This document shows, in pieces, positions 27,408-64,000 of a stretch of 64,000 bases of DNA. The stretch covers positions 144,749 to 208,748 of the forward strand of contig JAEUHR010000042.1 of NCBI GenBank assembly GCA_016794425.1. The letters are read 5' to 3'. Below the pieces are notes generated by a model. That model had not been told where the DNA came from, searched no databases, and saw only the letters and a list, made by a program, of their open reading frames with translations. The stretch's first letter is position 1. Every line of letters starts with the position of its first letter. Made by a program: the position numbers and the translations under genes. The DNA comes from Planctomycetota bacterium (lineage in GTDB: Bacteria > Planctomycetota > UBA1135 > UBA2386).

Positions 27408-27414
27408 GCGTGCG

Positions 27415-43482: not shown

Positions 43483-43598
43483 GTGTGCCGGCACGGGCAG
43501 CTGGCGCTCGCCGGCCGTAGCGCGCACTGGATTCCGGCCCGACGACCCCCTTCACTTCCGCTGCCCCGGAGGCGGCGTCGCCTCCACCGAGACATCCG

Positions 43599-44150: not shown

Positions 44151-44159
44151 TCCCTGCCG

Positions 44160-47238: not shown

Positions 47239-48383
47239 ACGACGGTCGGCGCTGCTGCGGAGCCGTCGCGCGCACCGCGTTGGCCGTGCTGGTCGCCGCC
47301 GCTGCGGGCGCGGCGCAGCAGGGCAGCGGCGATCCAGCGCGACCGCAGCCGCCCGAACGCACCGGCCGGCCGGACCCGTTCCTGCAGCCCAACCAGCCGC
47401 AGCAGCCGCGCGACCCGCTGGACCCGGTCTGGGGCACGCTGCCGCGGCCGTCGTTCGACGGCTTCCCGGTGTTCCCGTCGCGCCTGTCGGGCTACGGCGG
47501 CTACCCGCAGCCGGCGCGCCCGCTGCAACCGGGGCAGTTGCCGACCGTGCAGTTCCCGCCGGGCCTGATGCCGCTGCTGCCGGTCGCGGCGCCGGAGCCG
47601 CCGGGCTGGCCGGCGTGGGTCCGGCTGGCCGAGCGGGAGCCGCTGCCGTTCGCACCGGACCGCGCGCTGCTGGTGCAGAACTCGGATCGCGTCTGGTGGC
47701 GCGGCACCACCGACGAGCCGTTCGTACCGCTGTTCTTCCACGACAAGCTGCGCGCGCTCGAACCTGGCGCCGAGGTCGAAGTGCGCCAGAGCGGCGAGTT
47801 CGAACTGCTGCTGCACACGAGCAGCCGGGTCGTCGCGACCGGTCCGACCGAGCTGCGGCTCGTCGCGATGGACGCGGGCCACGTCGAACTGGACCTGCGG
47901 TCGTTCACGCGGCTGCGCGTGCAGGCCCGCGACCGCGACCACGTGCTGCGGCTGCCCGATGGCTCGCGGCTCGAAGCCGCGGCGCCGGCGCCGGACGAGG
48001 CCGCGCCCGGCCCGGTGCTGCTGCTGTTGCAGCGCGCCGACGAACCGAGCCGTTACGGCGGCCGCGCGACGATCTTCAACATCGGCGCACGGCCCGTGCG
48101 CTGGGTGCACGCGTTCGGTACCACCACGCTCGAACCCGACCACCGCGTCACGATGTTCCTGCGGCCGCCCGCCATCGCGGTGGGCGCCGGTCTCGCCGAA
48201 CTCGGCGGCCGCGCCGAGCCGACCAGCGGCGGGCGCGCGCTCGACTTCCGCGGCGCCGACGACGCCGAACTTTCCTGGTGCGGCGCGCGGTTCCAGGTCG
48301 GCGCCGGCAGCGTGCTGCGGCTCGACGCCGGCCAGGGTGCGCCCTTCGCACCGATCCCTCTCACCTCGAACGACACCCCATGA
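47235..48383 (+). CDS. Hypothetical secreted Pro-rich protein
   Basis: GTG 47235 overlaps the pfkA stop (GTGA). The signal-peptide-like N-terminus is [29 protein letters not shown] Pro/Gln-rich linker is followed by a probable beta-rich C-terminal domain. I recognise no domain. Confidence 0.55.
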
Positions 48384-49333
48384 AGGAAAAGCCTCGTGCA
48401 CTCGTGACCGGCGGCGCCGGTTTCATCGGTTCCCATCTCTGCGAACGCCTGCTGGCCGACGGCTGCCAGGTGATCGCGATGGACAACCTGATCACCGGCG
48501 CGCTGTCGAACATCGAGCACCTGTTCGGCAACCCGGACTTCGTGTTCCACCACCAGGACGTCACGAACTTCATCCACGTCTCGGGCCGGCTCGACTACAT
48601 CCTGCACTTCGCGTCGCCGGCGAGCCCGATCGACTACCTGGAGCTGCCGATCCAGACGCTGAAGGTCGGCGCGCTGGGCACGCACAAGGCGCTCGGTCTC
48701 GCGAAGGCCAAGGGCGCACGGTTGCTGCTGGCCAGCACCAGCGAGGTCTACGGCGATCCGCTCGTGCACCCGCAGCGCGAGGACTACTGGGGCAACGTCA
48801 ACCCGGTCGGGCCACGCGGCGTCTACGACGAGGCCAAGCGCTTCGCCGAGGCGATGACGATGGCCTACCAGCGCACGCACGGCGTCGAGACCCGGATCGT
48901 GCGCATCTTCAACACCTACGGACCGCGCATGCGGCTCAACGACGGCCGCGTGCTGCCGGCGTTCATGAGCCAGGCGCTGGCCGGGCGGCCGCTGACCGTG
49001 TTCGGCGACGGCTCGCAGACGCGCAGCTTCTGCTACGTCGACGACCTGGTCGAAGGCATCCTGCGGCTGTTGCGCAGCGACGAGAAGGAACCGGTCAACA
49101 TCGGCAACCCGCGCGAGATGACGATCCTGCAGTTCGGGGAAGCCGTGCAGAAGGCGACCGGCTCGAAGGTGCCGATCGAGTTCCGGCCGCTGCCGGTCGA
49201 CGACCCGAAGGTGCGGCGCCCCGACATCGGCAAGGCGCAGCGCGTGCTCGGCGGCTGGGAGCCGAAGGTCGCGCTCGAAGAGGGCCTGCGGCGCACGACC
49301 GAGTACTTCCGCAAGAAGCTCGCGAAGGGCTGA
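48380..49333 (+). CDS. UDP-glucuronate decarboxylase (UDP-xylose synthase)-type extended SDR
   Basis: [21 protein letters not shown] and YDEAKR are present. Similarity to the UXS/ArnA C-terminal domain type is strong overall. The ATG overlaps the upstream stop (ATGA). Confidence 0.88.
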
Positions 49334-49339
49334 GCGCCG

Positions 49340-50302
49340 GTGCGCGCCGCCGACACCGCCGCCGCGGTCGGGGCCGCTGCCGCGCGTCTGCGCGACCGGG
49401 TGGTCCGCACGCCGCTGGTGCCGAGCCCGTGGCTGTCCGCCGCGACCGGCGCCGAGGTGCGCTGCAAGCTCGAGAACGTGCAGCGGACCGGTTCGTTCAA
49501 GCTGCGTGGGGCGCTGCACGCGCTGCTGCAGCTCGAACCGGTCGCCCGCGCGCACGGCGTCGTCGCCGCGTCGTCGGGCAACCACGGCCTGGGCCTCGCG
49601 ACCGCCGCCGCGGAGCTCGGCGTGCCGGCGCACGTCTGCGTGCCGAACGCGACCGCCGCGGCCAAGGTGGCCGCGATCGAACGCGCCGGCGCGCGCGTCG
49701 AGCGCCACGGCGACGACTGCGTCGACACCGAACGCCACGCGCGCGCGCTGGCTGCGGCCACCGGTCGCGCCTACGTGTCGCCGTACAACGACCCGAACGT
49801 GGTCGCCGGCCAGGGCACCGTCGCGGTCGAGCTGCTCGAGCAGTGGCCGGCGGTCGAGGTGGTCTACGTCGCGGTCGGCGGCGGCGGTCTGATCGGCGGC
49901 ATGGCGGCGTGGGCGAAGTCGGTGCGGCCCGGCCTCGAGTTCGTCGGCTGTTCGCCGCTGGCGTCGCCGGCGATGGTGCAGTGCGTGCGGCGCGGCGCGA
50001 TCGTCGACGTGCCGTGCACCGACACGCTGTCCGACAGCACGGCCGGCGGCGTCGAACCCGGGGCGATCACGTTCGCCTTGTGCCGCGACCTGGTCGACCG
50101 CTGGCTCGACGTCGACGAGCCGGCGATCGGCCGCGCGCTGGTCGACACGCTCGAGCACCAGCACCTGCTGGTCGAAGGCGCCGCCGCGGTCGCGGTTGCG
50201 GCGTGCCGCCAGGACGCGGCGCTGCGCGGGCGCCGCGCGGCGATCGTGCTCTGCGGCGGCAACCTGCCGCTGGCCGTGCTGCGCCGGCTGCTGTGCGGCT
50301 GA
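49340..50302 (+). CDS. Fold-type II PLP enzyme, serine/threonine dehydratase (or racemase)-like
   Basis: The PLP-lysine motif GSFKLRGA, SSGNHG and the Gly loop GGGGLIGG are present. The protein is 320 aa with a GTG start. Confidence 0.85.
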   Translation: MRAADTAAAVGAAAARLRDRVVRTPLVPSPWLSAATGAEVRCKLENVQRTGSFKLRGALHALLQLEPVARAHGVVAASSGNHGLGLATAAAELGVPAHVCVPNATAAAKVAAIERAGARVERHGDDCVDTERHARALAAATGRAYVSPYNDPNVVAGQGTVAVELLEQWPAVEVVYVAVGGGGLIGGMAAWAKSVRPGLEFVGCSPLASPAMVQCVRRGAIVDVPCTDTLSDSTAGGVEPGAITFALCRDLVDRWLDVDEPAIGRALVDTLEHQHLLVEGAAAVAVAACRQDAALRGRRAAIVLCGGNLPLAVLRRLLCG

Positions 50303-50375
50303 GCCCGTTCAAGTCGCCGCGGCGCCGCCACCGATAGGCCGATGGCAACGGTCCCTCGTGGGGCCGGGCGTCGGC

Positions 50376-51656
50376 ATGGCATCGGATCGACTGCACGAAG
50401 GGGACTCGGGGTTCACGGCGATGGTGCTCGCCGGCGGACTCGGCACGCGGCTGCGGCCGGCGCTCGGCGATCGGCCGAAGGCGCTGGCGCCGGTCGACGG
50501 CGAGCCGTTCTTGCTGCACGTGCTCGACCAGCTCGCCGCCGCGGGTTGCCGGCGCGCGATCCTGTGCACCGGCCACCTGGCCGAGGCGATCGAACGCGAG
50601 TTCGGCGGTGACCACGACGGCATGGAACTCGTGCACTCGCGCGAGCCGCGTCCGCTCGGCACCGCCGGCGCGCTGCGCCGGGCGCTGCCGCGGCTCGGCG
50701 AGCCCGGCGTGCTGGTCGTGAACGGCGACTCGTACGTCGACCTCGATCTGCGGCAGTTCGTCGCCTGGGCGCGCACGCAGCCGAACGTGCCGGCGCTGGT
50801 CGCGGTCACGGTGCCCGACGCCGGTCGCTACGGCGCCGTGCAGTGCGATGCCGACGACCGCGTGACCGCGTTCGGCGAGAAGTCGGCGCGCGGGCCCGGC
50901 GCGATCAACGCCGGCGTCTACTGGCTGCCGGCGCGCGTGCTGGCGCTGCTGCCGCCGGACACGCCGTGCTCGCTCGAGCGCGAAGTGCTGCCGGTGCTGG
51001 TCGGCAGCGGCCTGCGCGCGTTCCGCTGCGAGGCGCCGTTCCTGGACATCGGCGTGCCCGAGGCCTGGGCCGCGGCCGGCGCGTTCTTCGCCGCCTGTGC
51101 GCGGCGCCGCACGCGGGCGCCCTCCGCCGGGTTGCTGGTCGTCGACCGCGACGGCACGTTGATCGACGAACGGCACTACCTGGCCGATCCGGCCGGCGTG
51201 CAGCTGCTGCCCGGCGTCGTCGACGGGCTGCGTGCGTTCGCGGCCAACGGCTACCGGATCGCAGTGGTCACGAACCAGTCCGGCATCGGCCGCGGTTACT
51301 TCGACGAGGCGGCCCTGCAGGCGGTGCACGCCGAGCTGTGCCGCCAGCTCGCGGCGCACGGCGTCGTGCTCGACGGCATCTGGCACTGCCCGCACCGGCC
51401 CGACGAGGGCTGTCGCTGTCGCAAGCCGAACCCGCAGCTGCTCGAGCACGCGCTCGGCGAACTCGGGGTGCCGCGCGAACGGTGCCTCGTGGTCGGCGAC
51501 AAGGCCTGCGACATCGACCTCGGCACGCGGCTCGGCGTGCGCACCGCGCTGGTGCGCACCGGCTACGGCACCGGCACCGAGCGCGACGGACTGTGTGCGC
51601 CCGACGTGGTCGTCGACTCCCTGTTCGAACTGGCGCAGCGGGAGGTGCTCGCGTGA
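50376..51656 (+). CDS. Fusion: sugar-1-phosphate nucleotidyltransferase (HddC-like) plus D,D-heptose 1,7-bisphosphate phosphatase (GmhB, HAD-IIIA)
   Basis: The N-terminal VLAGGLGTRLRP matches the NTP_transferase signature. The C-terminal has VVDRDGTLI, TNQSGIGRGYF, CPHRPDEGCRCRKPNP (the GmhB zinc/Cys motif) and VVGDKACD. Confidence 0.8.
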   Translation: MASDRLHEGDSGFTAMVLAGGLGTRLRPALGDRPKALAPVDGEPFLLHVLDQLAAAGCRRAILCTGHLAEAIEREFGGDHDGMELVHSREPRPLGTAGALRRALPRLGEPGVLVVNGDSYVDLDLRQFVAWARTQPNVPALVAVTVPDAGRYGAVQCDADDRVTAFGEKSARGPGAINAGVYWLPARVLALLPPDTPCSLEREVLPVLVGSGLRAFRCEAPFLDIGVPEAWAAAGAFFAACARRRTRAPSAGLLVVDRDGTLIDERHYLADPAGVQLLPGVVDGLRAFAANGYRIAVVTNQSGIGRGYFDEAALQAVHAELCRQLAAHGVVLDGIWHCPHRPDEGCRCRKPNPQLLEHALGELGVPRERCLVVGDKACDIDLGTRLGVRTALVRTGYGTGTERDGLCAPDVVVDSLFELAQREVLA

Positions 51657-52777
51657 TCGTCAGCCGTACCCCGTTCCGGATCTCGTTCTTCGGCGGCGGC
51701 ACCGACTACCCCGAGTGGTACCTGACGCACGGCGGCGCGGTGCTGTCGACGACGATCGACAAGTACTGCTACCTGAGCTGCCGCTACCTGCCGCCGTTCT
51801 TCGACTATCGCTATCGGGTCGTCTGGTCGAAGGTCGAGAACTGCCGCACGCTGGCCGAGATCGAGCACCCGGTCGTGCGCGTGCTGCTGGGCCACCTCGG
51901 CATCGAACGCGGCCTCGAAGTGCACCACGTCGGTGACCTGCCGGCGCGCAGCGGCATGGGCTCCAGTTCGGCCTTCACGGTCGGGCTGCTGCACGCGCTG
52001 TACGCGCTGCAGGGCCGCATGGTCGGCAAGCAGGAGCTGATGCGCGAGGCGATCCACGCCGAGCAGGTGCTGCTGCGCGAGACCGTCGGGTCGCAGGACC
52101 AGGTGGCGGCCGCGTTCGGCGGCTTCAACCGGATCGGCTTCGCGCCGGGCGGCCAGATCACCGTGACGCCGGTCGTGCTGCGGCCGGGCCGCGTCGAAGA
52201 GCTCGACCGGCACCTGATGCTGTTCTACACCGGCATCGTGCGCACCGCGTCGAAGGTCGCGGCCGGCTACGTGACCGACCTCGTGCACAAGCGGCGCCAG
52301 CTGCGCATCCTGCGCGACCTCGTCGACGAGAGCATCGAACTGCTGGCCAGCGACCGCTCGATCGCGGGCTTCGGCGACCTGCTCGACGAGGCGTGGGCGC
52401 AGAAGCGCAGCATCGCGCGCGGCATCAGCACCGACGAGGTCGACGACGTCTACGCGCGTGCGCGCGGAGCCGGCGCGCTCGGCGGCAAGATCACCGGCGC
52501 CGGCGGCGGCGGCTTCCTGCTGCTGTTCGTGCCGCCCGAACGCCAGGCCGCGGTCGCGGCCGCGCTGCCCGAACTGGTGCACGTGCCGTTCCGGTTCGAA
52601 TCGTCGGGCAGCCAGATCATCTTCTACGACCGCGAGGAGGACTTCTCGTCGGTCGAGGCCGCGCAGCGCGGTCGCCCGATCGCCGCGTTCCGTGAGGCGG
52701 ACGCGCCGGGCGCAGTGCTGCCGTGGCCGATCCCGTACCCGCGTACCCCCGAACCGGCCGCCCCGGGCCAGCCCTGA
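51653..52777 (+). CDS. GHMP-family sugar kinase, D-glycero-alpha-D-manno-heptose-7-phosphate kinase (HddA)-like
   Basis: GTG 51653 overlaps the upstream stop (GTGA). It starts SRTPFRISFFGGGTDYPEW and has the GHMP motif PARSGMGSSSAF and KITGAGGGGF. Confidence 0.8.
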   Translation: MIVSRTPFRISFFGGGTDYPEWYLTHGGAVLSTTIDKYCYLSCRYLPPFFDYRYRVVWSKVENCRTLAEIEHPVVRVLLGHLGIERGLEVHHVGDLPARSGMGSSSAFTVGLLHALYALQGRMVGKQELMREAIHAEQVLLRETVGSQDQVAAAFGGFNRIGFAPGGQITVTPVVLRPGRVEELDRHLMLFYTGIVRTASKVAAGYVTDLVHKRRQLRILRDLVDESIELLASDRSIAGFGDLLDEAWAQKRSIARGISTDEVDDVYARARGAGALGGKITGAGGGGFLLLFVPPERQAAVAAALPELVHVPFRFESSGSQIIFYDREEDFSSVEAAQRGRPIAAFREADAPGAVLPWPIPYPRTPEPAAPGQP

Positions 52778-52779
52778 CC

Positions 52780-53727
52780 ATGACCCGAACCACGACCATC
52801 GACCGCGCCGACGTCACGTGGCTGCTGCGCCGCATGCGCCTGATCCGTCAGGCCAGCGAACGCATCGCCAGGCTCTACCCGACCGACGTGATGGAGACGC
52901 CGGTGCACCTGTGCATCGGCCAGGAAGCCGTCCCGGTCGGCCTGTGCCGGCACCTGCGCGACGACGACAAGCTGTTCCTGGGCCACCGCACGCACGGCCC
53001 CGCGCTCGCGAAGGGTCTGCCGCTGCCGAAGCTGATGGCGGAGCTGTACGGCCGCACGACCGGCTGCTCGCACGGCTACGGCGGCTCGATGCACGTGATC
53101 GACCTCGAACACGGGCTGCCCGGCAGTTCGGCGATCGTCGGCGGCAGCATCGCGCTCGGCGTCGGGGCCGGCCTCGCCGCGAAGCTGACCGGCGCCAGCT
53201 GGATCGGTGTGTCGTACTTCGGCGACGCGGCGACCAACGCCGGCGTGTTCTACGAGAGCCTGAACTTCGCCGCGCTGCGCCGGCTGCCGGTGCTGTTCCT
53301 GTGCGAGGACAACGGCTGGTCGAACGTGATGCCGAAGAGCGCACACTCGGCGCACGACATCACCGGCGTGGCGGAGCAGATGATGCCGGTGCTGCAGGCC
53401 GACGGCACCGACGCGCTGTCGGTCTACGAGCACGCCGGCCACGCCGTCGAACGCATCCGCGGCGGCGGCGGCCCGATGCTGCTGCACTGCCGCACCAAGC
53501 GCTGGATGAAGCACCAGGGGCCGGAGCGCTGCGACCTGGCCGCGAACCACATCGACCCCGAGCGCGACTGCCCGATCGTCAGGCTCGAAACGTGGGCACA
53601 GCGCAGCGGCATGCTGGGCGCCGACGAGTGCACCGCGATCACGGCCGAGATCGAACGCGAGATCGACGCGGCGATCGCGTTCGCCGAGGCGTCGCCGTTT
53701 CCGCAGCCCGAACTGGTGGAGGTCTGA
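52780..53727 (+). CDS. Thiamine-diphosphate-dependent 2-oxoacid dehydrogenase E1 component, alpha subunit-like
   Basis: The TPP-binding motif is GDAATNAGVFYESLNFAALRRLPVLFLCEDNGW. The start is ATG 52780, 2 nt after the upstream stop. Confidence 0.85.
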   Translation: MTRTTTIDRADVTWLLRRMRLIRQASERIARLYPTDVMETPVHLCIGQEAVPVGLCRHLRDDDKLFLGHRTHGPALAKGLPLPKLMAELYGRTTGCSHGYGGSMHVIDLEHGLPGSSAIVGGSIALGVGAGLAAKLTGASWIGVSYFGDAATNAGVFYESLNFAALRRLPVLFLCEDNGWSNVMPKSAHSAHDITGVAEQMMPVLQADGTDALSVYEHAGHAVERIRGGGGPMLLHCRTKRWMKHQGPERCDLAANHIDPERDCPIVRLETWAQRSGMLGADECTAITAEIEREIDAAIAFAEASPFPQPELVEV

Positions 53728-53729
53728 CC

Positions 53730-54761
53730 ATGCCCTGGAGCAAATTCCGTCAGGACTACGCGGCGCCGACCGGCGGCCGCCCGCTCAGCTACTGCGCCGC
53801 GATCCGCGAAGCGATCGACCAGGCGATGCGGCACGACCCGCGCGTGTTCGCGATCGGCCTCGACGCCGACGACAAGTTCGGTGTGTTCGGTTCGATGGCG
53901 AACCTGACGCACCCCGAGCGCGTGCTCGGCACGCCGATCGCCGAGAACGCGATGACCGGCGTCGCGCTCGGCGCGGCGCTCAGCGGCTTGCGGCCGATCC
54001 ACGTGCACCTGCGCAACGACTTCCTGCTGGTGGCGATGGACCAGATCGTCAACTACGTCGCGAAGTGGCAGGACATGTTCGACCACCAGGTGCGCGTGCC
54101 GCTGGTGATCCGTTCGATCATCGGCCGCGGCTGGGGCTGCGGTGCGCAGCACTCGCAGTCGCTGCACGGCCTGTTCGCGCAGGTGCCGGGCCTCAAGGTC
54201 GTGATGCCGTCGACGCCGTACGACGTGAAGGGCCTGTTCCTGGCCGCGGTCGCCGACGATTCGCCGGTGTTGTTCCTCGAACACCGCTGGCTCTACAAGA
54301 ACACCGGCGACGTGCCGGAAGCGCTGTACACGCTGCCGTTCGGCCGCTGCGCGCGCCTGCACGAAGGCGAGAGCCTGACCGTCGTCGCGGCGTCGCTGGC
54401 GGCGGTGCACGCGCGGCTGGCCTGTGAGACGCACGGGCTCGACGTCGATCTGCTCGATCCGCGCACGATCAAGCCGCTCGACATCGACGGCATCGTCGCC
54501 TCGGTGCAGCGCACCGGGCGCCTGCTGGTGGTGGACCACGACTTCCCGTTCGGCGGCTTCGCGGCCGAGATCGTCGCGCAGGTCGCCGAACGCGCGCACG
54601 GCGCGCTGCGGCAGCCGCCGCAGCGGATCTGCTTCCCGGACCGCGGCATGCCGGCCAGCGGCGTGCTCGAACGCGCCTACTACCCGACGCCGGACCGGCT
54701 CGCGGCGGCGATGCAGGCGATGCTGGCCGGCGAACTCGTGGGAGGCGGCCATGGCTTCTGA
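53730..54761 (+). CDS. 2-oxoacid dehydrogenase E1 component, beta subunit-like (transketolase pyrimidine-binding and C-terminal domains)
   Basis: RVLGTPIAENAMTGVALGAALSG, GAQHSQS and PRTIKPLD are present. The start is ATG 53730, 2 nt after the alpha-subunit stop. Confidence 0.85.
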   Translation: MPWSKFRQDYAAPTGGRPLSYCAAIREAIDQAMRHDPRVFAIGLDADDKFGVFGSMANLTHPERVLGTPIAENAMTGVALGAALSGLRPIHVHLRNDFLLVAMDQIVNYVAKWQDMFDHQVRVPLVIRSIIGRGWGCGAQHSQSLHGLFAQVPGLKVVMPSTPYDVKGLFLAAVADDSPVLFLEHRWLYKNTGDVPEALYTLPFGRCARLHEGESLTVVAASLAAVHARLACETHGLDVDLLDPRTIKPLDIDGIVASVQRTGRLLVVDHDFPFGGFAAEIVAQVAERAHGALRQPPQRICFPDRGMPASGVLERAYYPTPDRLAAAMQAMLAGELVGGGHGF

Positions 54762-56295: not shown

Positions 56296-58823
56296 GCGAA
56301 CCCCTGCTGACCGCGATGGTCTCGACCTACGCCAGCGAGCGCTACCTCGCCGGCTGCCTCGACGACCTGCTGCAGCAGACGATCGCCGCGCGGATCGAGA
56401 TCGTCGTCGTCGACGCGGCATCGCCCGAGCGCGAGGGCGAGCTGGTGCGGGCCTACCAGCGGCACGCGCCGAACCTGCGCTACGTGCGCGCCGAGACCCG
56501 CGAGGGCACTTCGGCGGCGTTCCGCCGTGCGACCGCGCTGGCGCGCGGGCGCTACCTGACCACGGCGAACACCGACGACCGGCACCATCCGGAGTTCGCG
56601 GCGCGTATGGTCGAGGCGCTCGAACGGCACCCGGAGTTCGGGCTCTGCTATGCCGACTCGCTGATCACGCAGCGCGACAACGAGACCTGGCAGGTGCACA
56701 CGGCGCACAAGCGCTACGCGTGGCCGGACTACACGCCGGCGACCGCGCTGTCGTGCTGCCTGTTCGGCGCGCAGGCGGTCTGGCGGCGGTCCGTGCACAC
56801 GACGGTCGGCGACTGGGACGACGCGCATCCGTTCGCGAACGACCAGGACATGTTCCTGCGCATCGCGCGGCGGTTCGGGGCCGTGCACCTGCGGGCGCCG
56901 CTGGGCCTGTTCCTGCAGCGGCCGGACAGCCAGAGCGGCAGCGGCAACCGCCGCGCGACCCTGGCCGACGTGCTGGCCGTGCTGCGCAAGCACCGCTCGA
57001 GCTGGTCGCTCGACGAGGTGTTCCCGGCGCTGCAGCGCGACGACACGCCGGCCGCGCGCGCGGCAGCCTGGTTCGAACTCGGCAACCTGTGCGCACTGGG
57101 GCCGTACACGGACGCCGAGCTGGCGCTGCAGTGCTACGAGCGCGGTCTGCGCGAGCCGACCGACGGCGCCGCCGCCGCGCAGATCCGCGCGGCGTTCGCG
57201 AACAACACCGGCTGCGTGCTGGCGTGTGCCGGCGCGGCGCTGCCGGCGCAGCGCGCATTCGGGCTGTGCGACGACGTCGAACTGGTGGCCGACAACCGCG
57301 AGCGGCTGCAGCGGCGGCGGCAACGAGGGGGACTGCCGCGGCTCGACGAGCTGCGGTTCGCGCAACCGGAACACGCCGTCGTGCACGCGGCGCGCCGCGC
57401 CCGCGCGCTCGTGCTCGGCGACGACGGCGGCATGCGCTGGTCGGCGAGCCGCGCGCAGGTGCCGTGGAGCGCGTTCCCGGGCGCCGACGGCGTGCCGATC
57501 GCCCAGCCGGCCGAGCCCGCGCGGCGAGCGGCCGTGGTGGTGCCGCGGCCGGGGCCGCACGTGATGCTGGTCATGTACGGCTGGGCCGACAGCGGCGGTG
57601 GCACGATCCTGCCGCGCGCCGTGGCGCGGCAACTGGCTGCCGCGGGCCATCGCGTGTCGGTGGTGAGCGCGGCGGCGCGGCCGGACCCGGCGCTGCCGCC
57701 GTACGCGGTGCGGCGCGAACACGAGGACGGCGTCGACCTGTTCGCGATCGTCAACCGGCCGAGCGATTTCCTCGACCCGCAACACCCCGAGCGCGAGATC
57801 GACGATCCGGCGGTGCGGACGGCGTTCGCGGCGCTGCTCGACGAGCGGCGGCCGGATGTCGTGCACTTCTGGAACCTGCACAACCTCGGCCTCTCCCTGC
57901 CCGGCGAGTGCCGGCAGCGCGGTATCCCGACCGTGCTGTCGTCGAACAACTACTGGGCGCTGTGCCCACGCGCCTACCTGTTCGACGCGGCGCTGCGCCG
58001 CTGCGAGGGCGGCAGCGACGACGGCAAGAAGTGCGCACGCTGCGTCGGCACGCCGGCGGCCGCACCGGCGCACGCGGCACGCCGGCGCGCGGCGGTCCGC
58101 ATGCTGCGCGGTGACATCGACGTGCACCTGGCGGTGTCGCAGCGCGTGCGCGAGCTCTACGTGCAGAACGGCGACGAGCCGGGCCACGTGCGCGTGCTGC
58201 GGCAGGAGCCGCCCGAGGTCGCCGCGATCTGGCAGCGCACCGGCAGCCGGCGCGCGATCACCGCCGAACTGCGGCGGCCGCTGCGGGTCGGCTTCTTCGG
58301 CTCGGTGCTGCCGCACAAGGGCCTGCACGTGCTGGTGCAGGCGCTGCAGCTGCTGCCCGAGGTGCCGCTGGTCGCGGTCGCGCTCGGCGATGCCGACCCC
58401 GGCTACGCGGCGCGGCTCGCCGAACTGGACCGGTTGCGGCGGCTGCACCTGCATGGCCCGTATCCGCCGGCCGCGCTGCCGGAGCTGCTGGCGACCGTCG
58501 ACGTCGTCGTGGTGCCATCGGTGTGGGACGACTGCGCGCCGTACGTGGTCGCCGAGGCGCTCGCAGCGCGCTGTCCGGTGGTGGGCAGCGCGGCCGGCGG
58601 CATCCCGGACTTCGTACGGGCCGGGCACAACGGACTGCTGTTCCCGCCCGGCGACGCGGCGGCGCTGGCGGCGTGCCTGCGGTCGTTCGTGCAGGACCCG
58701 CGGCAGCTCGGCCGCATGCAGGCGGCGATCGAACCGCCGCGCGGCCTGCCGGCGTTCACGGCCGAACTGCTGGCCGTCTACCGCGAACTCGAACCGGCGG
58801 CCGGGCGCCTGCAGCCGGCCTGA
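56292..58823 (+). CDS. Two-domain glycosyltransferase: N-terminal GT2 (GT-A) plus C-terminal GT4/GT1-type (GT-B)
   Basis: The ATG overlaps the upstream stop (ATGA). The N-terminal is MVSTYASERYLAGCLDDLLQQT...VVVDAASPE...TANTDD. The C-terminal is VVVPSVWDDCAPYVVAEALAARCPVVGSAAGGIPDFV...GLLFPPGD. Confidence 0.8.
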   Translation: MSEPLLTAMVSTYASERYLAGCLDDLLQQTIAARIEIVVVDAASPEREGELVRAYQRHAPNLRYVRAETREGTSAAFRRATALARGRYLTTANTDDRHHPEFAARMVEALERHPEFGLCYADSLITQRDNETWQVHTAHKRYAWPDYTPATALSCCLFGAQAVWRRSVHTTVGDWDDAHPFANDQDMFLRIARRFGAVHLRAPLGLFLQRPDSQSGSGNRRATLADVLAVLRKHRSSWSLDEVFPALQRDDTPAARAAAWFELGNLCALGPYTDAELALQCYERGLREPTDGAAAAQIRAAFANNTGCVLACAGAALPAQRAFGLCDDVELVADNRERLQRRRQRGGLPRLDELRFAQPEHAVVHAARRARALVLGDDGGMRWSASRAQVPWSAFPGADGVPIAQPAEPARRAAVVVPRPGPHVMLVMYGWADSGGGTILPRAVARQLAAAGHRVSVVSAAARPDPALPPYAVRREHEDGVDLFAIVNRPSDFLDPQHPEREIDDPAVRTAFAALLDERRPDVVHFWNLHNLGLSLPGECRQRGIPTVLSSNNYWALCPRAYLFDAALRRCEGGSDDGKKCARCVGTPAAAPAHAARRRAAVRMLRGDIDVHLAVSQRVRELYVQNGDEPGHVRVLRQEPPEVAAIWQRTGSRRAITAELRRPLRVGFFGSVLPHKGLHVLVQALQLLPEVPLVAVALGDADPGYAARLAELDRLRRLHLHGPYPPAALPELLATVDVVVVPSVWDDCAPYVVAEALAARCPVVGSAAGGIPDFVRAGHNGLLFPPGDAAALAACLRSFVQDPRQLGRMQAAIEPPRGLPAFTAELLAVYRELEPAAGRLQPA

Positions 58824-59966
58824 TCAGAGGCAGCGCTGCAGGATCTCGAGGTCGCGGTCGTACGAATCGGCCGCCAGCGGGCCGAACGAGAACCGCGCCA
58901 GACCGCCGAGCGGGCCGCGGTCGCCGCGCCGCGCCATGTCGCACAGGCGGCCCGGCAGGATCGCCGCGTCGTGCCGCATCAGCCGTTCGTTGAGGCCGTC
59001 ACCGGTCAGGCCCTTCGGCAGCTGCAGCCAGTGGTAGAAGCCGCCGTCGCCGGTGAACAGCTCGAGGCCGAGGCGGCGCAGGCCTTCGCCGTAGCGGCGG
59101 CGCTGCGCGGTGTAGAACGCGGCGATCGCCTGGCGCGCCTGTGCGACGCGGTCGCGCTGCAGCAGCTGCGTCACGTAGAGCTGCGAGGCGCGCGACACGC
59201 CGCCCATCGCGAACGAGCTGTAGTTGCGGAACACGTCGATGTGGCGCTTGCTGGCGACGACCCAGCCGACGCGCATGCCCGGCACCTGCAGTCCCTTGGT
59301 CGCGGCGCCGACGACGAACAGGTTGGTGGCGTCGATGTCCTGCACGTAGCGCAGCGCGCTGACGGGCTCCGGCTCGCAGAAGAACTCGTAGGCCTCGTCG
59401 ATCAGCGCGCCGCGGTCGGGGCGGCTGTACGCGGCCACCAGCGCGCGCAGGGCATCGCCGTGCGTCGTGACGCCGGTGGGGTTGCACGGGTTGCTCTTGA
59501 CCAGGAACAGCTTGTCGCGGCGCGGGTGGTCGTCGAGGGTGGGCCGGAAGCGGTTGCCCGGATGGCTCGGGATCAGCGCGCTGGGCCGGCGCAGCACCTG
59601 CAGCAGGTCGTAGTACGGCGTGTACTCGGTCTCCTCGATCGCGACCGTGACGTCCTCGAGCAGGAAGGCCAGGATCGCGAAGATCGCCGGCCTGCCGCCC
59701 GCGAACACCGCGACGTGGTCGGCCGTGATCTTCGCGCCGTAGAAGTGCCGGTAGTACTCCGCGATCGCCTCGCGCAGCGGCGGCTGGCCGTCCGCCTTCG
59801 GGTACATGCGATCGGTGGCGCCGATCGCGATCGAGTCCGGCAGCGGCGGGCCGCCGGGCACCTGCGTCGTCAGCGGGAAACCCTGGGCCCACGGGTGCGT
59901 GCCCGGGTCGCCCATGTACTTGTGCGTGACCTCGGCGAAGCGGAACAGGGTCTCGTAGACCCCCAT
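58824..59966 (-). CDS. Class I/II PLP-dependent aminotransferase
   Basis: KSNPCNPTG and the Lys context GAATKGLQVPGMRVGW are present. I chose ATG 59966 (MGVYETLFRF); upstream GTG alternatives exist. Its stop abuts the GT stop with zero spacing (tgatca). Confidence 0.8.
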   Translation of the reverse strand: MGVYETLFRFAEVTHKYMGDPGTHPWAQGFPLTTQVPGGPPLPDSIAIGATDRMYPKADGQPPLREAIAEYYRHFYGAKITADHVAVFAGGRPAIFAILAFLLEDVTVAIEETEYTPYYDLLQVLRRPSALIPSHPGNRFRPTLDDHPRRDKLFLVKSNPCNPTGVTTHGDALRALVAAYSRPDRGALIDEAYEFFCEPEPVSALRYVQDIDATNLFVVGAATKGLQVPGMRVGWVVASKRHIDVFRNYSSFAMGGVSRASQLYVTQLLQRDRVAQARQAIAAFYTAQRRRYGEGLRRLGLELFTGDGGFYHWLQLPKGLTGDGLNERLMRHDAAILPGRLCDMARRGDRGPLGGLARFSFGPLAADSYDRDLEILQRCL

Positions 59967-60115
59967 CGGCGGGAACTGGCGCAGGAACACGGGCACGGAC
60001 CATACCCGGGGCCGCGGCCCGGCGTCACGTTCGCCCGGCCGGCCGGTTGCGTGCAGCAGCGAAGTCGGCGCGGCGGCCGGCGCGGGGGACCCGGCGATCT
60101 GGTAGCGTCGCACCG

Positions 60116-60343
60116 ATGACGAAGATCACCGTGCACGACCACGGCCCGCTGCGGATCGAGGGCGACGTGACTCTCTGTGATGCCACCGGCAAGCAGTTCG
60201 GCCTCGGTGGCCGCCAGGTGGTGTCGCTGTGCCGCTGCGGCCTGTCCGCGAACAAGCCGTTCTGCGACGGGCAGCACGCCCGCCAGGGTTTCCAGTCGAG
60301 TTGCCCGGCGCGCGACCTGCCGCCGCCGAAGCCGAAGGCCTGA
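60116..60343 (+). CDS. CDGSH-type iron-sulfur domain protein
   Basis: SLCRCGLSANKPFCDGQH is the CDGSH [2Fe-2S] signature. The protein is 75 aa. Confidence 0.8.
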   Translation: MTKITVHDHGPLRIEGDVTLCDATGKQFGLGGRQVVSLCRCGLSANKPFCDGQHARQGFQSSCPARDLPPPKPKA

Positions 60344-60393
60344 CGTTCTGCGCCCTCAAGCCGACGGCGCCGAGCCGCCGATAGGAAGGGCGG

Positions 60394-60915
60394 ATGCGCG
60401 TCTTCGAGACCGAACTGCAGGGCGTGCGGCGGATCGAGCCCGAGGTCTTCACCGACCACCGCGGCAGCTATGTCGAACTGTTCGACAGCGAGAAGTACCG
60501 CGCCGCGTGTGGTGGGGTCACGTTCGTGCAGGACGACATCTCGGTGTCGCACACGAACGTGCTGCGTGGCCTGCACGGCGACTGGCAGACCACGAAGCTG
60601 GTGTCGGTGCTCGCCGGCGAGGGCTACGCGCTGCTGGCCGACAACCGGCCCGATTCGCCGACCTACCGCCGCTGGCAGGCGTTCGTGCTGGACGGCACCA
60701 GCCGGCACCAGCTGCTGATTCCGCCCGGCATCGGCAACTCGGTCTACGTCGTGCAGGGGCCGCTGGTCTACTGGTACAAGCAGAACCAGCACTGGGCGCC
60801 CGGACGGCAGTTCACGATCCGCTGGGACGACCCGAGCTGGGGCTTCGAATGGCCGACGCGCGACCCGATCCTCTCGGCGCGCGACGCGAAGGGGGACTAT
60901 GTCACGGCGCCCTAG
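60394..60915 (+). CDS. RmlC-type cupin: nucleotide-4-keto-6-deoxy-sugar 3,5- (or 3-) epimerase
   Basis: FTDHRGSYVELF, VLRGLHG and LLIPPGIGNSVYV match the dTDP-4-dehydrorhamnose 3,5-epimerase family. Confidence 0.85.
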   Translation: MRVFETELQGVRRIEPEVFTDHRGSYVELFDSEKYRAACGGVTFVQDDISVSHTNVLRGLHGDWQTTKLVSVLAGEGYALLADNRPDSPTYRRWQAFVLDGTSRHQLLIPPGIGNSVYVVQGPLVYWYKQNQHWAPGRQFTIRWDDPSWGFEWPTRDPILSARDAKGDYVTAP

Positions 60916-61915
60916 TTGCCTGATCACGGGTTTCACGGGCATGGTGGGCAGCCACCTGGCCGACCACCTGCTCGAGCACACCGACTGGCAGCTCCACGGG
61001 CTGCTGCGCTGGAACGACGATCTCTCGAACGTCGACCACCTGCTGCCGCGCGTCAACAGCAAGGACCGCATCGGGCTCGTCTACGGCGACCTCAACGACC
61101 ACCCGTCGCTCGAGCGCGCGGTTGCTGCGACGCGGCCGGACTACGTGTTCCATCTGGCGGCGCAGAGCTACCCGCAGACCAGCTTCACGGCGCCGATCGA
61201 GACGCTGCAGACGAACATCCTCGGCACGGCGGGCCTGCTCGAGGCGATCCACCGTTCGGGTCTGCAGCCGGTCGTGCACGTCTGCGCGTCGTCGGAGGTG
61301 TTCGGCCGCGTGCCGAAGCGCTACCTGCCGATCGGCGAGGAGACGCCGTTCCATCCGGCCTCGCCGTACGCGATCAGCAAGGTCGGCACCGACCTGGTCG
61401 GGCGCTTCTACGCCGAGGCCTACGGGCTCTGCGTGATGACGACGCGCATGTTCACGCACACCGGACCGCGGCGCGGCGACGTGTTCGCCGAGTCGACGTT
61501 CGCGAAGCAGATCGCGCTGATCGAAGAGGGCCGCATCGAACCGGTGCTGCGCACCGGCAACCTCGACTCGATGCGCACCTGGTCCGACGTGCGCGACGCC
61601 GTGCGCGCCTACCACCTGCTGGTCACCGTGAACCCGGTGCCGGGCGCCTACTACAACATCGGCGGCGCCTACTCGTGCACGGTCGGCGACATGCTGCGGC
61701 ACCTGCTGTCGCTGTCGACCCGCGACGACATCGAGGTCGTGACCGACCCTGAGCGCCTGCGGCCGATCGACGCCGACCTGCAGGTTCCCGACACCACGAA
61801 GTTCCGCGCCCACACCGGCTGGGAGCCGCGGATCCCGTTCGAGCAGACGATGCAGGACCTGCTCGACTGGTGGCGCGACCGCGTGCGCAGCGGCCGCAAC
61901 TTCCTGGTGCGTTGA
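60899..61915 (+). CDS. GDP-mannose 4,6-dehydratase / Rmd-type extended SDR
   Basis: ITGFTGMVGSHL, ASSEVFG and SPYAISK (YxxxK) are present. It overlaps the epimerase gene by 17 nt. Confidence 0.8.
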   Translation: MSRRPSCLITGFTGMVGSHLADHLLEHTDWQLHGLLRWNDDLSNVDHLLPRVNSKDRIGLVYGDLNDHPSLERAVAATRPDYVFHLAAQSYPQTSFTAPIETLQTNILGTAGLLEAIHRSGLQPVVHVCASSEVFGRVPKRYLPIGEETPFHPASPYAISKVGTDLVGRFYAEAYGLCVMTTRMFTHTGPRRGDVFAESTFAKQIALIEEGRIEPVLRTGNLDSMRTWSDVRDAVRAYHLLVTVNPVPGAYYNIGGAYSCTVGDMLRHLLSLSTRDDIEVVTDPERLRPIDADLQVPDTTKFRAHTGWEPRIPFEQTMQDLLDWWRDRVRSGRNFLVR

Positions 61916-62053
61916 GCGCCGGCGCCGGGCTGGCTCAGAGCTGCGGCACCACGATCGTCTGCAGCCACGGCACCGCGCCGGTCACCCGATCGGTGACGGC
62001 CACGTCGCACGGGTGTCCCGATCGGCCGTGCTGTTGGGCGAGGGCCACGACCC

Positions 62054-63610
62054 TCACAACGTGCACAGCGCGCGGCCCAAGTCCGGCGGCGAGCGGTAGC
62101 CGCGGTACCAGTAGTTCGGCGGCCGCCAGAGCGCGCGCGGATCGACGGGCTCCGTGCCCGGCGGCAGCTGGTCGTCGCGCACGAAGAACGCGTTGACGCC
62201 GGCCTGCGTGCAGTAGACCAGCGTGTAGCCCTTGCGCCGGCCGAGCTCGGCCAGCGCCAACAGGCTGGCGCCGTAGAAGTCGCTGCCGTCCCAACGGTGC
62301 GCCGGGTCGTACGGCATCGTCAGCGCGCGGTCGAACGGCAGGTTCGCGTTGTACTCGCAGACGACGACCCGCGGCCGGCGCCGGATCGCGCGCCAGATCC
62401 ACCAGTCGTTGCCGTCGACGTCGATCGACAGCAGATCGGGTTCGTCGGGCACGCCGTGCTGGTCGAGCAGCTCGTTGATGTTCTCGGCGGTGATCCAGGC
62501 GGCGTGGATCACCGCGTCGGCGGCGGCCGGCGCGGCCATGCCGTCCATCAACAGACCGTGCCAGCCGGAGCGCCGCAGCTGCGTCGTGTTGCACTGCAGA
62601 CCGTCGCCGCAGCCGAACTCGACGTAGCAGCGGTTCGTCGTGCCGAGGCGCGCGAACAGTTCGGCCAGCACGCCGTCCTCGCCACCTTGGCTCGTGACCT
62701 GCCGTTCGGCGCGTTCGAGGTCGAAGAACGACCGCGGCGGCTGCTGCAGCGGCTGCCGCGCCGAGTCGATCGCGAGCGCCTCGATGCCGTGTGGCCACGC
62801 GGCGCGCGGGCCGGCCGCGAGTGCGACCACGAACGCGTCGTCGGCGTCGTGCTGCACGCGGCCGGCTCGGACCGGCTGCCATGCCGACCCCACGAAGCTG
62901 CGGCGCAGTCGTTCGATCGCCGAGCCGCGGCCGCGCACGACGCAGCGGGCGCCGGTCGGCAGCGCGTGGTGCACCGCGGCGAGCACGGCCGCAGCGGTCG
63001 CCGGGTCGAGGTCGTCGAGCCAGCCGTGCGCGTAGACGCCGTCGCAGTCGCCGGCCAGCGCGGGCAGCTGCGCGAGGCCGCCGGCGACGACGTCGTGGCC
63101 GCGCGCGCGGGCCGCCGCGGCCAGGCCGGGCGTGGCCTCGATCCCGGCTGTGGCGACGCCGCGCAGCCGCAGCGCGTCGAGGAACGCACCGCCGCCGGCG
63201 CCGAGTTCGACGACGCGGCGGCAGCCGGTGAACAGGTCCGCGTACGGACCGACGCGCACCATCGGCGGCGGCGCCGGCAGGTCGGCGCCGGGCTTGCGCC
63301 ACAGCAGGCCGTCGGCCGTCGCGACAGTGGGGCCGGGCAGCCCGGCCGGCGTGGCGCCGCGCAGCAGCAGCCGGCCGCCGGGCAGCAGCGCTTCGTCCAG
63401 CGCGGGCCAGAGCACCTGCGCGCTGGCGCCGGCCAGCCGGTCGAGATCGACGACGATGCCGTCGAACCGGTGCCGGAAGTGGTGCAGCCGCCGGCAATCG
63501 GCCGCCGAGCCCGCCGCCAGCGTGACGGTCGGCACACCGATCGCACGCAGCTCCGCGGCGCCGGCGTCGGCAACGGCGAGCACCATGCGGCAGTCGCGCA
63601 GCGCGTTCAC
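62054..63610 (-). CDS. Multi-domain methyltransferase (class I SAM-binding domain plus FkbM-like domain)
   Basis: VVELGAGGGAF lies in the middle. The C-terminal YVEFGCGDGLQCNT ... LLSIDVDGNDWWIW resembles FkbM-type methyltransferases. GTG 63610 overlaps the upstream stop (GTGA). Confidence 0.65.
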   Translation of the reverse strand: MNALRDCRMVLAVADAGAAELRAIGVPTVTLAAGSAADCRRLHHFRHRFDGIVVDLDRLAGASAQVLWPALDEALLPGGRLLLRGATPAGLPGPTVATADGLLWRKPGADLPAPPPMVRVGPYADLFTGCRRVVELGAGGGAFLDALRLRGVATAGIEATPGLAAAARARGHDVVAGGLAQLPALAGDCDGVYAHGWLDDLDPATAAAVLAAVHHALPTGARCVVRGRGSAIERLRRSFVGSAWQPVRAGRVQHDADDAFVVALAAGPRAAWPHGIEALAIDSARQPLQQPPRSFFDLERAERQVTSQGGEDGVLAELFARLGTTNRCYVEFGCGDGLQCNTTQLRRSGWHGLLMDGMAAPAAADAVIHAAWITAENINELLDQHGVPDEPDLLSIDVDGNDWWIWRAIRRRPRVVVCEYNANLPFDRALTMPYDPAHRWDGSDFYGASLLALAELGRRKGYTLVYCTQAGVNAFFVRDDQLPPGTEPVDPRALWRPPNYWYRGYRSPPDLGRALCTL

Positions 63611-64000
63611 GGCGTCGGGCCGGTGGTCGTCTCGGCGGAGAAGTACTCACCGGGCACGAAGCTCGCGCGCCGCCGGCCGAGGCCGCGGTAGCGGTTCTGC
63701 TGGCCGCGGAAGTCCGCCGCGGGCAGCACGCGGGCGTCGAACGTGACCCGCGTCAGGTCGGTGCGGTTCGCCGGTCCGGCGTGCAGGCAGCGCGGGTCGA
63801 ACACGACGACGTCGCCGACACCGACCTCGAGCGGCCGGCAGATGCGTTCGCAGCGCGCGATCAGCCCGGGGTCCTGCTGTGTGTCGCGGCCGAAGCGCGC
63901 GAAGTCGTGGTCGTAGGGCCGCAGCAGGTCGAGGCTCTCGTCGAGGTCGGCCAGCAGCAGCGAACGCGTCGCCTCGCACTGCACCAGCGGCACGAACACG
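63607..64000 (-). CDS. Phytanoyl-CoA dioxygenase (PhyH)-family Fe(II)/2-oxoglutarate oxygenase; N-terminus beyond the right edge
   Basis: GDVVVFDPRCLHAGPANRT is the typical PhyH C-terminal His motif context. The reading frame is open at the window edge. Confidence 0.6.
   Translation of the reverse strand, partial: VFVPLVQCEATRSLLLADLDESLDLLRPYDHDFARFGRDTQQDPGLIARCERICRPLEVGVGDVVVFDPRCLHAGPANRTDLTRVTFDARVLPAADFRGQQNRYRGLGRRRASFVPGEYFSAETTTGPTP

Follow-up and report, generated by a model that had tools for sequence, protein, structure and literature searches.

A widespread bacterial gene cassette, present in a planctomycete, predicted to make a GDP-activated, carbon-modified heptose

A gene unit at positions 50358-56295 (+ strand) of a 64-kb stretch of Planctomycetota bacterium DNA (assembly GCA_016794425.1, contig JAEUHR010000042.1, positions 144,749 to 208,748; this whole stretch is referred to below as the window) is the core of a sugar-nucleotide tailoring cluster. 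The core encodes a fusion of an HddC-like guanylyltransferase with a GmhB-like phosphatase, an HddA-like kinase, the alpha and beta subunits of a thiamine-dependent E1 enzyme, and a radical S-adenosylmethionine (SAM) enzyme with a B12-binding-type domain. It is a six-function cassette of very wide distribution, a fact overlooked in the initial annotation of the window, which was made from the sequence alone and joined these genes to their neighbours in one 16-kb cluster (48380-64000). The distinctive, widespread core is uncharacterised in the profile libraries and the literature that we searched: no characterised homologue of the cassette was found in either, and the literature searched on the gene combination likewise held no characterised locus with it, as the initial annotation had supposed. 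We give a probability of about 0.55 to the reading that the window contains the planctomycete version of a widespread cassette making a guanosine diphosphate (GDP)-activated, carbon-modified heptose.

The window has a GC content of 72%, at which shadow frames swamp mechanical lists of open reading frames, and therefore genes were called from a frame plot of third-position GC (GC3) together with nearby start codons. Domains were checked against Pfam and NCBIfam profiles, and solved relatives were identified by comparison with the PDB. The core begins with the NTP_transferase::HAD-IIIA fusion (50358-51656) and continues with a GHMP kinase (51653-52777), the start of which overlaps the upstream stop codon (GTGA), E1 alpha (52780-53727) and E1 beta (53730-54761), all four on the + strand and supported by both profile libraries. 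E1 beta overlaps by 11 nt the gene of the B12-binding and radical SAM protein (54751-56295, +; Pfam), which is followed by a fusion of glycosyltransferase (GT) domains, GT2::GT4 (56292-58823, +; Pfam), whose start codon overlaps the radical SAM stop codon (ATGA) in an arrangement indicative of translational coupling. Start/stop overlaps thus join the kinase, E1, radical SAM and GT genes.

One genome of each species was scanned for relatives of the radical SAM enzyme, which gave at least 581 stretches of DNA; among 8000 scored candidates, one per 90%-identity cluster, all but three matched with E <= 1e-60. The best 80 of the at least 581 stretches come from Planctomycetota, Nitrospirota, Cyanobacteria, Omnitrophota, Myxococcota, Chloroflexota, Acidobacteriota, Verrucomicrobiota, Binatia, Poribacteria and Elusimicrobiota, with one Methanoperedens metagenome-assembled genome in addition. 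The protein is 53-86% identical across more than 12 phyla (53-60% between phyla and 58-86% among the best 120 homologues), and an NCBI entry from a Planctomycetes metagenome-assembled genome is 100% identical to that of the window, whose source is an uncultured planctomycete. The order of the core genes is kept in loci of many phyla, and their clustering is not due to chance. Cultured carriers are Solidesulfovibrio magneticus RS-1, Azospirillum species, Magnetospirillum moscoviense and Floridaenema fluviatile. In Solidesulfovibrio magneticus RS-1 the cassette neighbourhood is carried by plasmid pDMC1, where its NCBI annotation is generic only. It lies there (loci L089 and L090 in our numbering; positions 22514-39663 of the record) in a run of 17 same-strand genes between IS66 elements, which also holds a GT2 gene, a GT-C (PMT-like) gene, lhgO and an SIS gene. 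Plasmid AZO_p6 of Azospirillum lipoferum 4B (L088, 12678-17370) carries a reduced form composed of an Fcl-like short-chain dehydrogenase/reductase (SDR), the radical SAM enzyme, the kinase and a NUDIX gene, with no homologue of a thiamine enzyme or nucleotidyltransferase within 14 kb. A 1127-aa hypothetical protein encoded beside these Azospirillum genes was considered as a hidden thiamine enzyme and rejected, as it has no Pfam domain.

The partners of the radical SAM gene were counted by tblastn, using proteins of the window and of a clean cyanobacterial locus (L047) as queries, in 53 loci with at least 7 kb of sequence upstream of this gene. The HddA-like kinase is found nearby in 49 of the 53 loci, E1 alpha/beta in 45, a nucleotidyltransferase in 41, the HAD phosphatase in 23 and GmhA in 10. 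A Cj1427-like SDR is present in 39 loci, an Fcl-like SDR in 27 and a DmhA-like SDR in 10; an SDR expected to form a 4-keto sugar, of either the Cj1427-like or the DmhA-like kind, is encoded in 46, and an enzyme of the DegT family in 39. In seven of the eight loci that have no E1, its slot is filled by a split transketolase (TktN and TktC) placed between the SDR and the DegT/radical SAM genes (L053, L055, L061, L064, L066, L080 and L081; e.g., L081:6827-8742 and L061:8005-9979), and one further locus, L042, has both E1 alpha/beta and the split transketolase. With 45 loci containing E1 and seven containing the split transketolase, a two-subunit thiamine enzyme is a nearly obligatory partner of the radical SAM gene (52/53), which implies that the unit of selection is the cassette and not the 16-kb block. 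Locus L001 (radical SAM protein 83% identical) repeats nearly the whole arrangement of the window, minus its first SDR; at 58% identity, L003 and L004 keep six genes, i.e., those of the nucleotidyltransferase, HAD phosphatase, GHMP kinase, E1 alpha, E1 beta and radical SAM enzyme.

The enzymes expected to activate the sugar resemble those of heptose metabolism. The fusion protein is HddC-like at approximately residues 20-240 and resembles GmhB, a HAD-IIIA phosphatase, at approximately residues 255-430, the two being encoded by separate genes in relatives such as L003. It scores 153 bits with the NCBIfam model of GmhB (NF006506; cutoff 178) and 112 bits with that of HddC (NF049965; cutoff 300), the latter being exceeded by a mannose-1-phosphate guanylyltransferase model at 153 bits; its best PDB matches are the HddC of Yersinia pseudotuberculosis (5xhw, 122 bits, versus 106 bits for GMPPB) and GmhB (4pnh, 108 bits). 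The kinase is divergent from HddA (127 bits with the NCBIfam model, cutoff 600) and 55-86% identical across the cassette family, and its closest solved relatives, at 110-130 bits, are heptose kinases (WcbL 4usk, 3k85 and Campylobacter jejuni HddA 4n3o). Since heptose enzymes (WcbL/HddA, HddC and GmhB) are the nearest solved proteins for the kinase and for both the NTP-transferase and the HAD domain, a GDP-heptose module, as originally proposed for this locus, is likely to be present. A homologue of SIS/GmhA was found nowhere in the 64-kb window; gmhA does occur in relatives of the cassette, including the one on pDMC1.

E1 alpha matches the Pfam family E1_dh with 168 bits and the NCBIfam model of the pyruvate dehydrogenase (PDH) E1 alpha subunit with 252 bits (cutoff 394), and E1 beta matches the corresponding PDH model with 247 bits (cutoff 321). 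The thiamine diphosphate motif GDA-X26-N of E1 alpha is intact, and in an alignment of E1 beta to the Geobacillus subunit (1w85_B) the activating Glu in 'PIAEN' aligns with Glu59 and the His in 'AQHSQS' with His128. A loss of this lipoyl-directed His, considered as an argument against PDH activity, had to be discarded: the residue is conserved and hence uninformative. Neither E2 nor E3 is encoded in the operon or in the related loci examined; the sole E2 domain of the window lies 35 kb away in an OdhA/Kgd-type protein that joins an E2 catalytic domain to 2-oxoglutarate dehydrogenase E1 (14356-17946, +), an architecture best known from actinobacteria. The E1 pair takes a mid-operon position between the kinase and the radical SAM gene, which is kept across phyla. 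By gene context, it lies in a sugar-nucleotide cluster with the enzymes for a 4-keto-6-deoxy sugar, as do pairs of the AviB1/AviB2 and Pau11/Pau12 type, for which a role in attaching an acetyl branch to 4-keto sugars was proposed (PMC4753412).

The radical SAM enzyme has an N-terminal B12-binding-type Rossmann domain (Pfam B12-binding, 58 bits, cutoff 32) and the cluster motif CPFTCTFC (CxxxCxxC) at residue 229. The best-scoring curated families in NCBIfam are BchE (144 bits) and HpnJ (141 bits), with which it aligns over its full length; all family scores are far below the cutoffs (144 versus 481, 141 versus 578 and 68 versus 500). The nearest solved protein by sequence is AprD4 (69 bits), the likeness being limited to the radical SAM core (approximately residues 197-441, 22% identity). 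AprD4 is also nearest in fold to the AlphaFold model of the enzyme (pLDDT 79; TM 0.67/0.75), followed by the methylases TsrM, MgmA and CysS and by OxsB, an enzyme of ring contraction. AprD4 is a 1,2-diol dehydratase of a sugar and binds no cobalamin, though its N-terminal domain is related (PMC12931638). The reaction catalysed by the enzyme of the window may be a C-methylation, a radical ring formation or a diol dehydration that makes an acceptor carbonyl. In a Nitrospira locus (L061:11693-13582), a second gene for a 629-aa radical SAM protein with a B12 domain, approximately 25% identical, is located directly downstream of the radical SAM gene of the cassette.

Further downstream in the window, an RmlC-type cupin (60394-60915, +) and a GMD-type SDR (60899-61915, +), both identified by Pfam and NCBIfam, are predicted to act on the activated sugar. 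The SDR matches 7us5, the C. jejuni enzyme, with 363 bits (E 1e-107), far ahead of GDP-mannose dehydratases (at most approximately 150 bits), and keeps the catalytic motifs SSE (residues 131-133) and YAISK (YxxxK, residue 157). By these matches it is an orthologue of the Campylobacter GDP-heptose 4,6-dehydratase (DmhA type), and its product would be GDP-6-deoxy-4-keto-heptose. The best PDB matches of the cupin are the C. jejuni GDP-4-keto-heptose 3,5-epimerases 7m14 and 8db5 (approximately 120 bits), with dTDP RmlC proteins close behind (96-106 bits), and it is best described as a putative RmlC-type C3/C5 epimerase of a 4-keto sugar nucleotide and a clade-level partner of the core. The initial annotation had pointed to GDP-heptose remodelling by such enzymes in C. 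jejuni and Y. pseudotuberculosis, with which these matches agree. In L001, L006-L010, L012, L013 and L017, an epimerase gene follows the core at a distance of 5-10 kb, with the dehydratase conserved beside it. No C4 reductase was found in the window or in any examined member of its clade; the first SDR of the cluster (48380-49333, +) was considered for this role and ruled out as a true UDP-xylose synthase (UXS). Where the cassette takes its commoner form, its first SDR is highly conserved and orthologous to Cj1427, matching 6vo6, which we take to be Cj1427 itself, with 374 bits. Eleven loci, namely pDMC1 (L089 and L090), L022, L028, L031, L042, L063, L066, L067, L068, L070 and L075, have beside the cassette a gene resembling L-2-hydroxyglutarate oxidase, which fits the recycling of L-2-hydroxyglutarate because this compound is the product of a C4 dehydrogenase of the Cj1427 type. 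Cj1427 was characterised as an alpha-ketoglutarate-dependent C4 dehydrogenase with a ping-pong mechanism (PMC10680097).

A pathway consistent with these assignments can be proposed, in which the first five steps are supported by homology and the last three are those that we infer. The HddA-like kinase would phosphorylate C1 of heptose 7-phosphate, gmhA presumably being located elsewhere in the genome. The GmhB domain would then take off the distal phosphate, and the fused HddC domain would form GDP-heptose. The DmhA orthologue would convert it to GDP-6-deoxy-4-keto-heptose, of which the RmlC-type enzyme would epimerise C3 and/or C5. In the sixth step, the E1 pair would decarboxylate a 2-oxo acid, i.e., pyruvate, or 2-oxobutyrate if the Thr/Ser dehydratase encoded upstream feeds the pair, and the thiamine-bound acyl anion would attack a sugar carbonyl, for which the 4-keto group is the simplest choice, as modelled on AviB1/AviB2 and Pau11/Pau12. 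This step would consume the ketone by formation of a C-C bond, which would explain the lack of a C4 reductase. The radical SAM enzyme, translationally coupled to E1 beta, would act in an adjacent step by C-methylation of the branch or by radical ring closure; alternatively, it may create the acceptor carbonyl by an AprD4-like diol dehydration. Finally, the GT2::GT4 fusion would transfer the product; it is a clade-level partner, found after the radical SAM gene in L001, L005-L013, L017, L085 and L087. The thiamine and radical steps are placed after GDP activation because the partners of these enzymes include SDR and DegT enzymes of the nucleotide level and because the C4 reductase is missing.

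Several points weigh against this pathway. The kinase, HddC and GmhB domains all score below the NCBIfam equivalog cutoffs, which means that the sugar could be a modified heptose or another omega-phosphorylated sugar. The epimerase and dehydratase genes are located 1.6 kb downstream of the core, past an oppositely oriented gene, and are tied to it solely by the shared substrate and clade-level synteny. The functions of AviB1/AviB2 and Pau11/Pau12 are themselves proposals only (PMC4753412), and only the unrelated enzymes of the YerE/ErwE type have been proven to carry out thiamine-dependent acyl branching of a 4-keto sugar (PMC4753412, PMC9306805). Since E1 can be replaced by an enzyme of the transketolase type, the donor need not be a 2-oxo acid, and the acceptor might be an aldehyde rather than the 4-ketone. 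The lineage of L003, L004 and L023 has the six core functions and no 4-keto-forming SDR within 10 kb, and the reduced Azospirillum locus implies that the radical SAM enzyme has its tightest partner in the kinase and not in the thiamine enzyme.

The SDR-less six-gene cassette, the reduced Azospirillum locus and the transketolase substitution keep alive a model in which the order of events is inverted, on the pattern of lincomycin GDP-octose synthesis: the thiamine and radical SAM enzymes would start from central metabolites and build or modify an unusual sugar phosphate, which the kinase, GmhB and HddC would then activate, while the dehydratase and epimerase would come in later or use ordinary GDP-heptose as their substrate. 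The cassette of L003 and L023 would be self-sufficient under this scheme, which would also accommodate the constancy of the kinase as a neighbour of the radical SAM gene, the persistence of this pair in Azospirillum, and the replacement of E1 by an enzyme whose natural substrates are sugar phosphates. Moreover, the kinase falls far short of the HddA model and yet is highly conserved within the family, which suggests a specialised substrate. We nevertheless consider this inverted order unlikely. The 4-keto-forming SDR that accompanies the cassette in 46 of the 53 loci acts at the nucleotide level, and the DegT family, represented in 39, acts on nucleotide-linked keto sugars; the thiamine genes are placed between tailoring genes and not beside gmhA. 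In addition, an E1-type addition of pyruvate to an aldose phosphate would be expected to yield a 1-deoxy-ketose, which an anomeric kinase or a GmhA-type isomerase could not use in the usual way.

Another possible sequence of events, and a rather unlikely one, is that the radical SAM enzyme acts before the thiamine pair as an AprD4-like, cobalamin-independent 1,2-diol dehydratase on GDP-heptose, for example at the C6-C7 diol, so that the thiamine pair attacks the newly formed carbonyl and the sugar is extended at its tail instead of being branched at C4. AprD4 is the nearest solved protein both in sequence and in fold, and it acts on a sugar diol in a cobalamin-free manner (PMC12931638). Such a reaction would explain the pairing with a thiamine enzyme in 52 of the 53 loci as well as the existence of the SDR-less cassette. 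However, the similarity to AprD4 is confined to the radical SAM core, whereas the N-terminal domain matches the Pfam B12-binding family and the alignment with BchE and HpnJ spans the whole protein; besides, an SDR capable of making a ketone is already encoded in most loci.

BchE and HpnJ, the best family matches, are ring-forming enzymes, and this is the basis of a more specific version of the pathway from GDP-heptose, which we consider improbable. Here, the thiamine-dependent two-carbon addition to GDP-heptose would be followed by closure of a carbon ring by the radical SAM enzyme, and an acetyl branch at C4 together with a C7-C8 bond would give a 4,8-cyclo-9-deoxy-nonose, the skeleton of caryose, a sugar whose biosynthetic route is given as unknown (PMC9092360). 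The C4 dehydrogenase encoded by the commoner form would leave the 6-hydroxyl in place, and the 3-deoxy position could be due to an RfbH/ColD-like enzyme of that form, while the version of the window, with its 4,6-dehydratase, would lead to a 6-deoxy analogue. The caryose producer, Trinickia/Burkholderia caryophylli, is absent among the plasmid matches and the top 120 proteobacterial homologues, which is no evidence either way.

The initial annotation predicted that all fourteen genes between 48380 and 64000 work towards a single sugar, derived from a heptose by branching, amination, methylation and hydroxylation, an interpretation that we regard as very improbable. The fourteen domain assignments on which it was built are all borne out by Pfam and NCBIfam, in the order and at the positions claimed, and in the near-identical arrangement of L001 the genes of the aminotransferase, the CDGSH protein, the methyltransferase and PhyH are all retained. 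However, the first SDR is missing in L001 and is present in 8 of the 53 loci. It matches human UXS1 (4gll, 2b69; PDB comparison) with 378 bits over residues 2-314, the next class, epimerases, reaching 161 bits. It is an ordinary UDP-glucuronate decarboxylase (UDP-xylose synthase) and probably not a heptose-tailoring enzyme, and it may feed one of the GT domains. The class I/II aminotransferase (58824-59966, start possibly up to 60113, -) is convergent with the GT gene and abuts it. It belongs to Pfam Aminotran_1_2 only and not to the DegT type of sugar aminotransferases, its best NCBIfam match being GntC (122 bits, cutoff 415), and it has homologues in L001, L010 and L014 only; a homologue of DegT, the enzyme common in the related loci, was not found in the window. 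The CDGSH protein (60116-60343, +; Pfam zf-CDGSH, 63.5 bits) occurs elsewhere in L001 only, after the dehydratase gene. The methyltransferase of 518 aa (62054-63610, -; Pfam), described as a two-domain protein, does have an N-terminal class I SAM domain, but of the second domain there is just a sub-threshold FkbM signal (14.6 bits); its homologues are found in L001 and L008, and in L085 and L087 the dehydratase is followed by a large methyltransferase of the FkbM type that is unrelated to the one of the window. PhyH, a putative 2-oxoglutarate/Fe(II) oxygenase encoded on the - strand from 63607 to beyond 64000 and represented by its C-terminal part, as it is cut by the window end, scores 24.8 bits with Pfam (cutoff 22) and 30.7 bits with NCBIfam TIGR04324 (cutoff 150), and its only relative is a full-length 305-aa homologue in L001. 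In other members of the clade, the positions of these neighbouring genes are taken by a major facilitator superfamily (MFS) transporter, glyceraldehyde-3-phosphate dehydrogenase, a sulfotransferase or different methyltransferases. The UXS, aminotransferase, CDGSH, methyltransferase and PhyH genes are lineage-specific additions outside the core pathway.

The Thr/Ser dehydratase of the PALP family (49340-50302, +) stands somewhat closer to the core. It passes the NCBIfam model NF005292 (377 bits, cutoff 371), is confined to relatives in which the radical SAM protein is at least approximately 74% identical, and is separated from the core by a gap of 56-165 nt, the one sizeable gap in the operon. 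By analogy with ErwI/ErwJ, which serve ErwE, it is possible that it is an accessory enzyme supplying 2-oxobutyrate or pyruvate to the E1 pair. The last alternative, that neither the E1 pair nor the radical SAM enzyme has anything to do with the sugar genes and that E1 is a conventional 2-oxo-acid or acetoin dehydrogenase component beside an ordinary 6-deoxyheptose cluster, is scarcely credible: all catalytic residues, including beta His128, are kept and the best matches are PDH E1 subunits, but both subunits are under the PDH cutoffs, E2 and E3 are absent from the operon and its vicinity, and dozens of loci from different phyla have the kinase, E1 and radical SAM genes in this same order. The concern raised when the cluster was first described, that the pair might prove to be a PDH, branched-chain 2-oxo-acid dehydrogenase or acetoin E1 with E2 and E3 just past 64000, does not apply to a pair placed mid-operon between the kinase and the radical SAM gene.

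The capsule heptose toolkit of C. jejuni is composed of GmhA, HddA, GmhB, HddC, a C4,6-dehydratase, Cj1427, C3/C5 epimerases, a C3-dehydratase dependent on pyridoxal phosphate and C4-reductases (PMC10680097). The cassette is predicted to share with it the activation chemistry by a GHMP kinase, a HAD phosphatase and a guanylyltransferase; the dehydratase of the window is orthologous to 7us5 by the comparison given above, its putative epimerase resembles enzymes of the Cj1430 type, and the commoner form of the cassette has the Cj1427 orthologue, an Fcl-like reductase, DegT and, often, the gene resembling L-2-hydroxyglutarate oxidase. However, the heptose pathways of C. jejuni contain neither a thiamine enzyme nor a radical SAM enzyme, while the window lacks gmhA, a C4 reductase and Cj1427 and has activation enzymes under the NCBIfam equivalog cutoffs.

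As in the systems of AviB1/AviB2 (avilamycin), Pau11/Pau12 (paulomycin) and YerE/ErwE (yersiniose and erwiniose), a thiamine enzyme is encoded in a sugar-nucleotide cluster beside the enzymes of a 6-deoxy-4-keto pathway (PMC4753412, PMC9306805), and, as with ErwE and ErwI/ErwJ, a neighbouring gene may supply the 2-oxo-acid donor (PMC9306805). Erwiniose itself, considered at first as a heptose-derived branched octose that might match the cassette, was ruled out as such: it is a 3,6-dideoxyhexose branched at C4 by a single-chain enzyme of the YerE type (PMC9306805). Unlike the cassette, which is predicted to act on GDP-heptose, all of these systems act on dTDP- or CDP-hexoses of antibiotics or O-antigens, YerE and ErwE are single-chain enzymes of the acetolactate synthase type and not E1 pairs, and none of the systems is coupled to a radical SAM enzyme. 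The likeness of AviB1/AviB2 to the E1 pair of the window is one of gene context. In the GDP-octose pathway of lincomycin, LmbR and LmbN build the sugar phosphate and LmbP, LmbK and LmbO activate it, i.e., here too a GHMP kinase, a HAD phosphatase and a guanylyltransferase activate a sugar of higher carbon number after its assembly as a phosphate ester; the skeleton is made there by a transaldolase, not by a thiamine-dependent E1 pair, and a radical SAM enzyme is not known to take part. The radical SAM enzyme of the cassette shares its two-domain architecture and the CxxxCxxC motif with AprD4, with BchE (ring formation) and HpnJ (cyclitol formation), and with the methylases TsrM, CysS, TokK, MgmA, GenK and Fom3 (PMC12931638, PMC9092360). 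It differs from the named families of B12-domain radical SAM enzymes in scoring far below every family cutoff, and its use of cobalamin is predicted from the domain only.

The genes around the core form four transcription blocks in the order +, -, + and -. According to the frame-plot gene calls, the + strand is used throughout from approximately 41777 to 58823, with frequent translational coupling, the order of genes being moaC, asd, accB, accC, an unknown membrane protein, pfk, an unknown proline-rich protein and then the cluster genes. The beginning of the cluster had been set at 48380, where the start codon of the UXS gene overlaps the upstream stop codon (ATGA); the same-strand run begins at approximately 41777. 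The accompanying description of every gene from there to the window end as a sugar-nucleotide or tailoring enzyme was overstated, since the Thr/Ser dehydratase, the class I/II aminotransferase and the CDGSH protein are outside the sugar-nucleotide families. The membrane protein (45503-46189, 228 aa) and the proline-rich protein (47235-48383, 382 aa, hydrophobic N-terminus) have no match in Pfam or NCBIfam, and their positions between accC, pfk and uxs are kept in L001, L005, L007, L012 and L013. Scans for Rfam families, tRNAs, promoters and terminators gave nothing useful; the 'tRNA-???' with a four-base anticodon that ARAGORN reported at 46335-46428 (-) falls within the coding region of pfk and is almost certainly spurious.

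Elsewhere in the window, a class II (B12-dependent) ribonucleotide reductase of 1210 aa with a TSCPD domain, the barrel domain of which is matched in two stretches, is encoded at 32718-36350 (-), showing that the organism uses cobalamin. A protein with DinB_2 and FGE-sulfatase domains, the architecture of EgtB-type sulfoxide synthases, is encoded at 25584-27407 (+), with a class I methyltransferase nearby (23772-24620, -). The segment 22400-23500 is strand-asymmetric and G/T-rich on the + strand, with a GC content of 0.67 versus 0.72 elsewhere and a GC skew of +0.23, and contains no tandem repeat, Rfam match or convincing open reading frame.

The tailoring of GDP-heptose is so far understood only for Campylobacter and a few pathogens, in which it is carried out by dehydrogenases, dehydratases, epimerases and reductases. 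The cassette, which is very common in environmental bacteria, adds two chemistries to the heptose toolkit, a thiamine-dependent enzyme that forms C-C bonds and a radical SAM enzyme, and the cultured carriers make it directly testable. Solving its function would show which new modified higher sugar planctomycetes, nitrospirae, cyanobacteria, myxobacteria and others carry on their surfaces, would provide the first biochemical test of sugar branching by an E1-type enzyme, and would assign a reaction to a large unstudied branch of B12-domain radical SAM enzymes.

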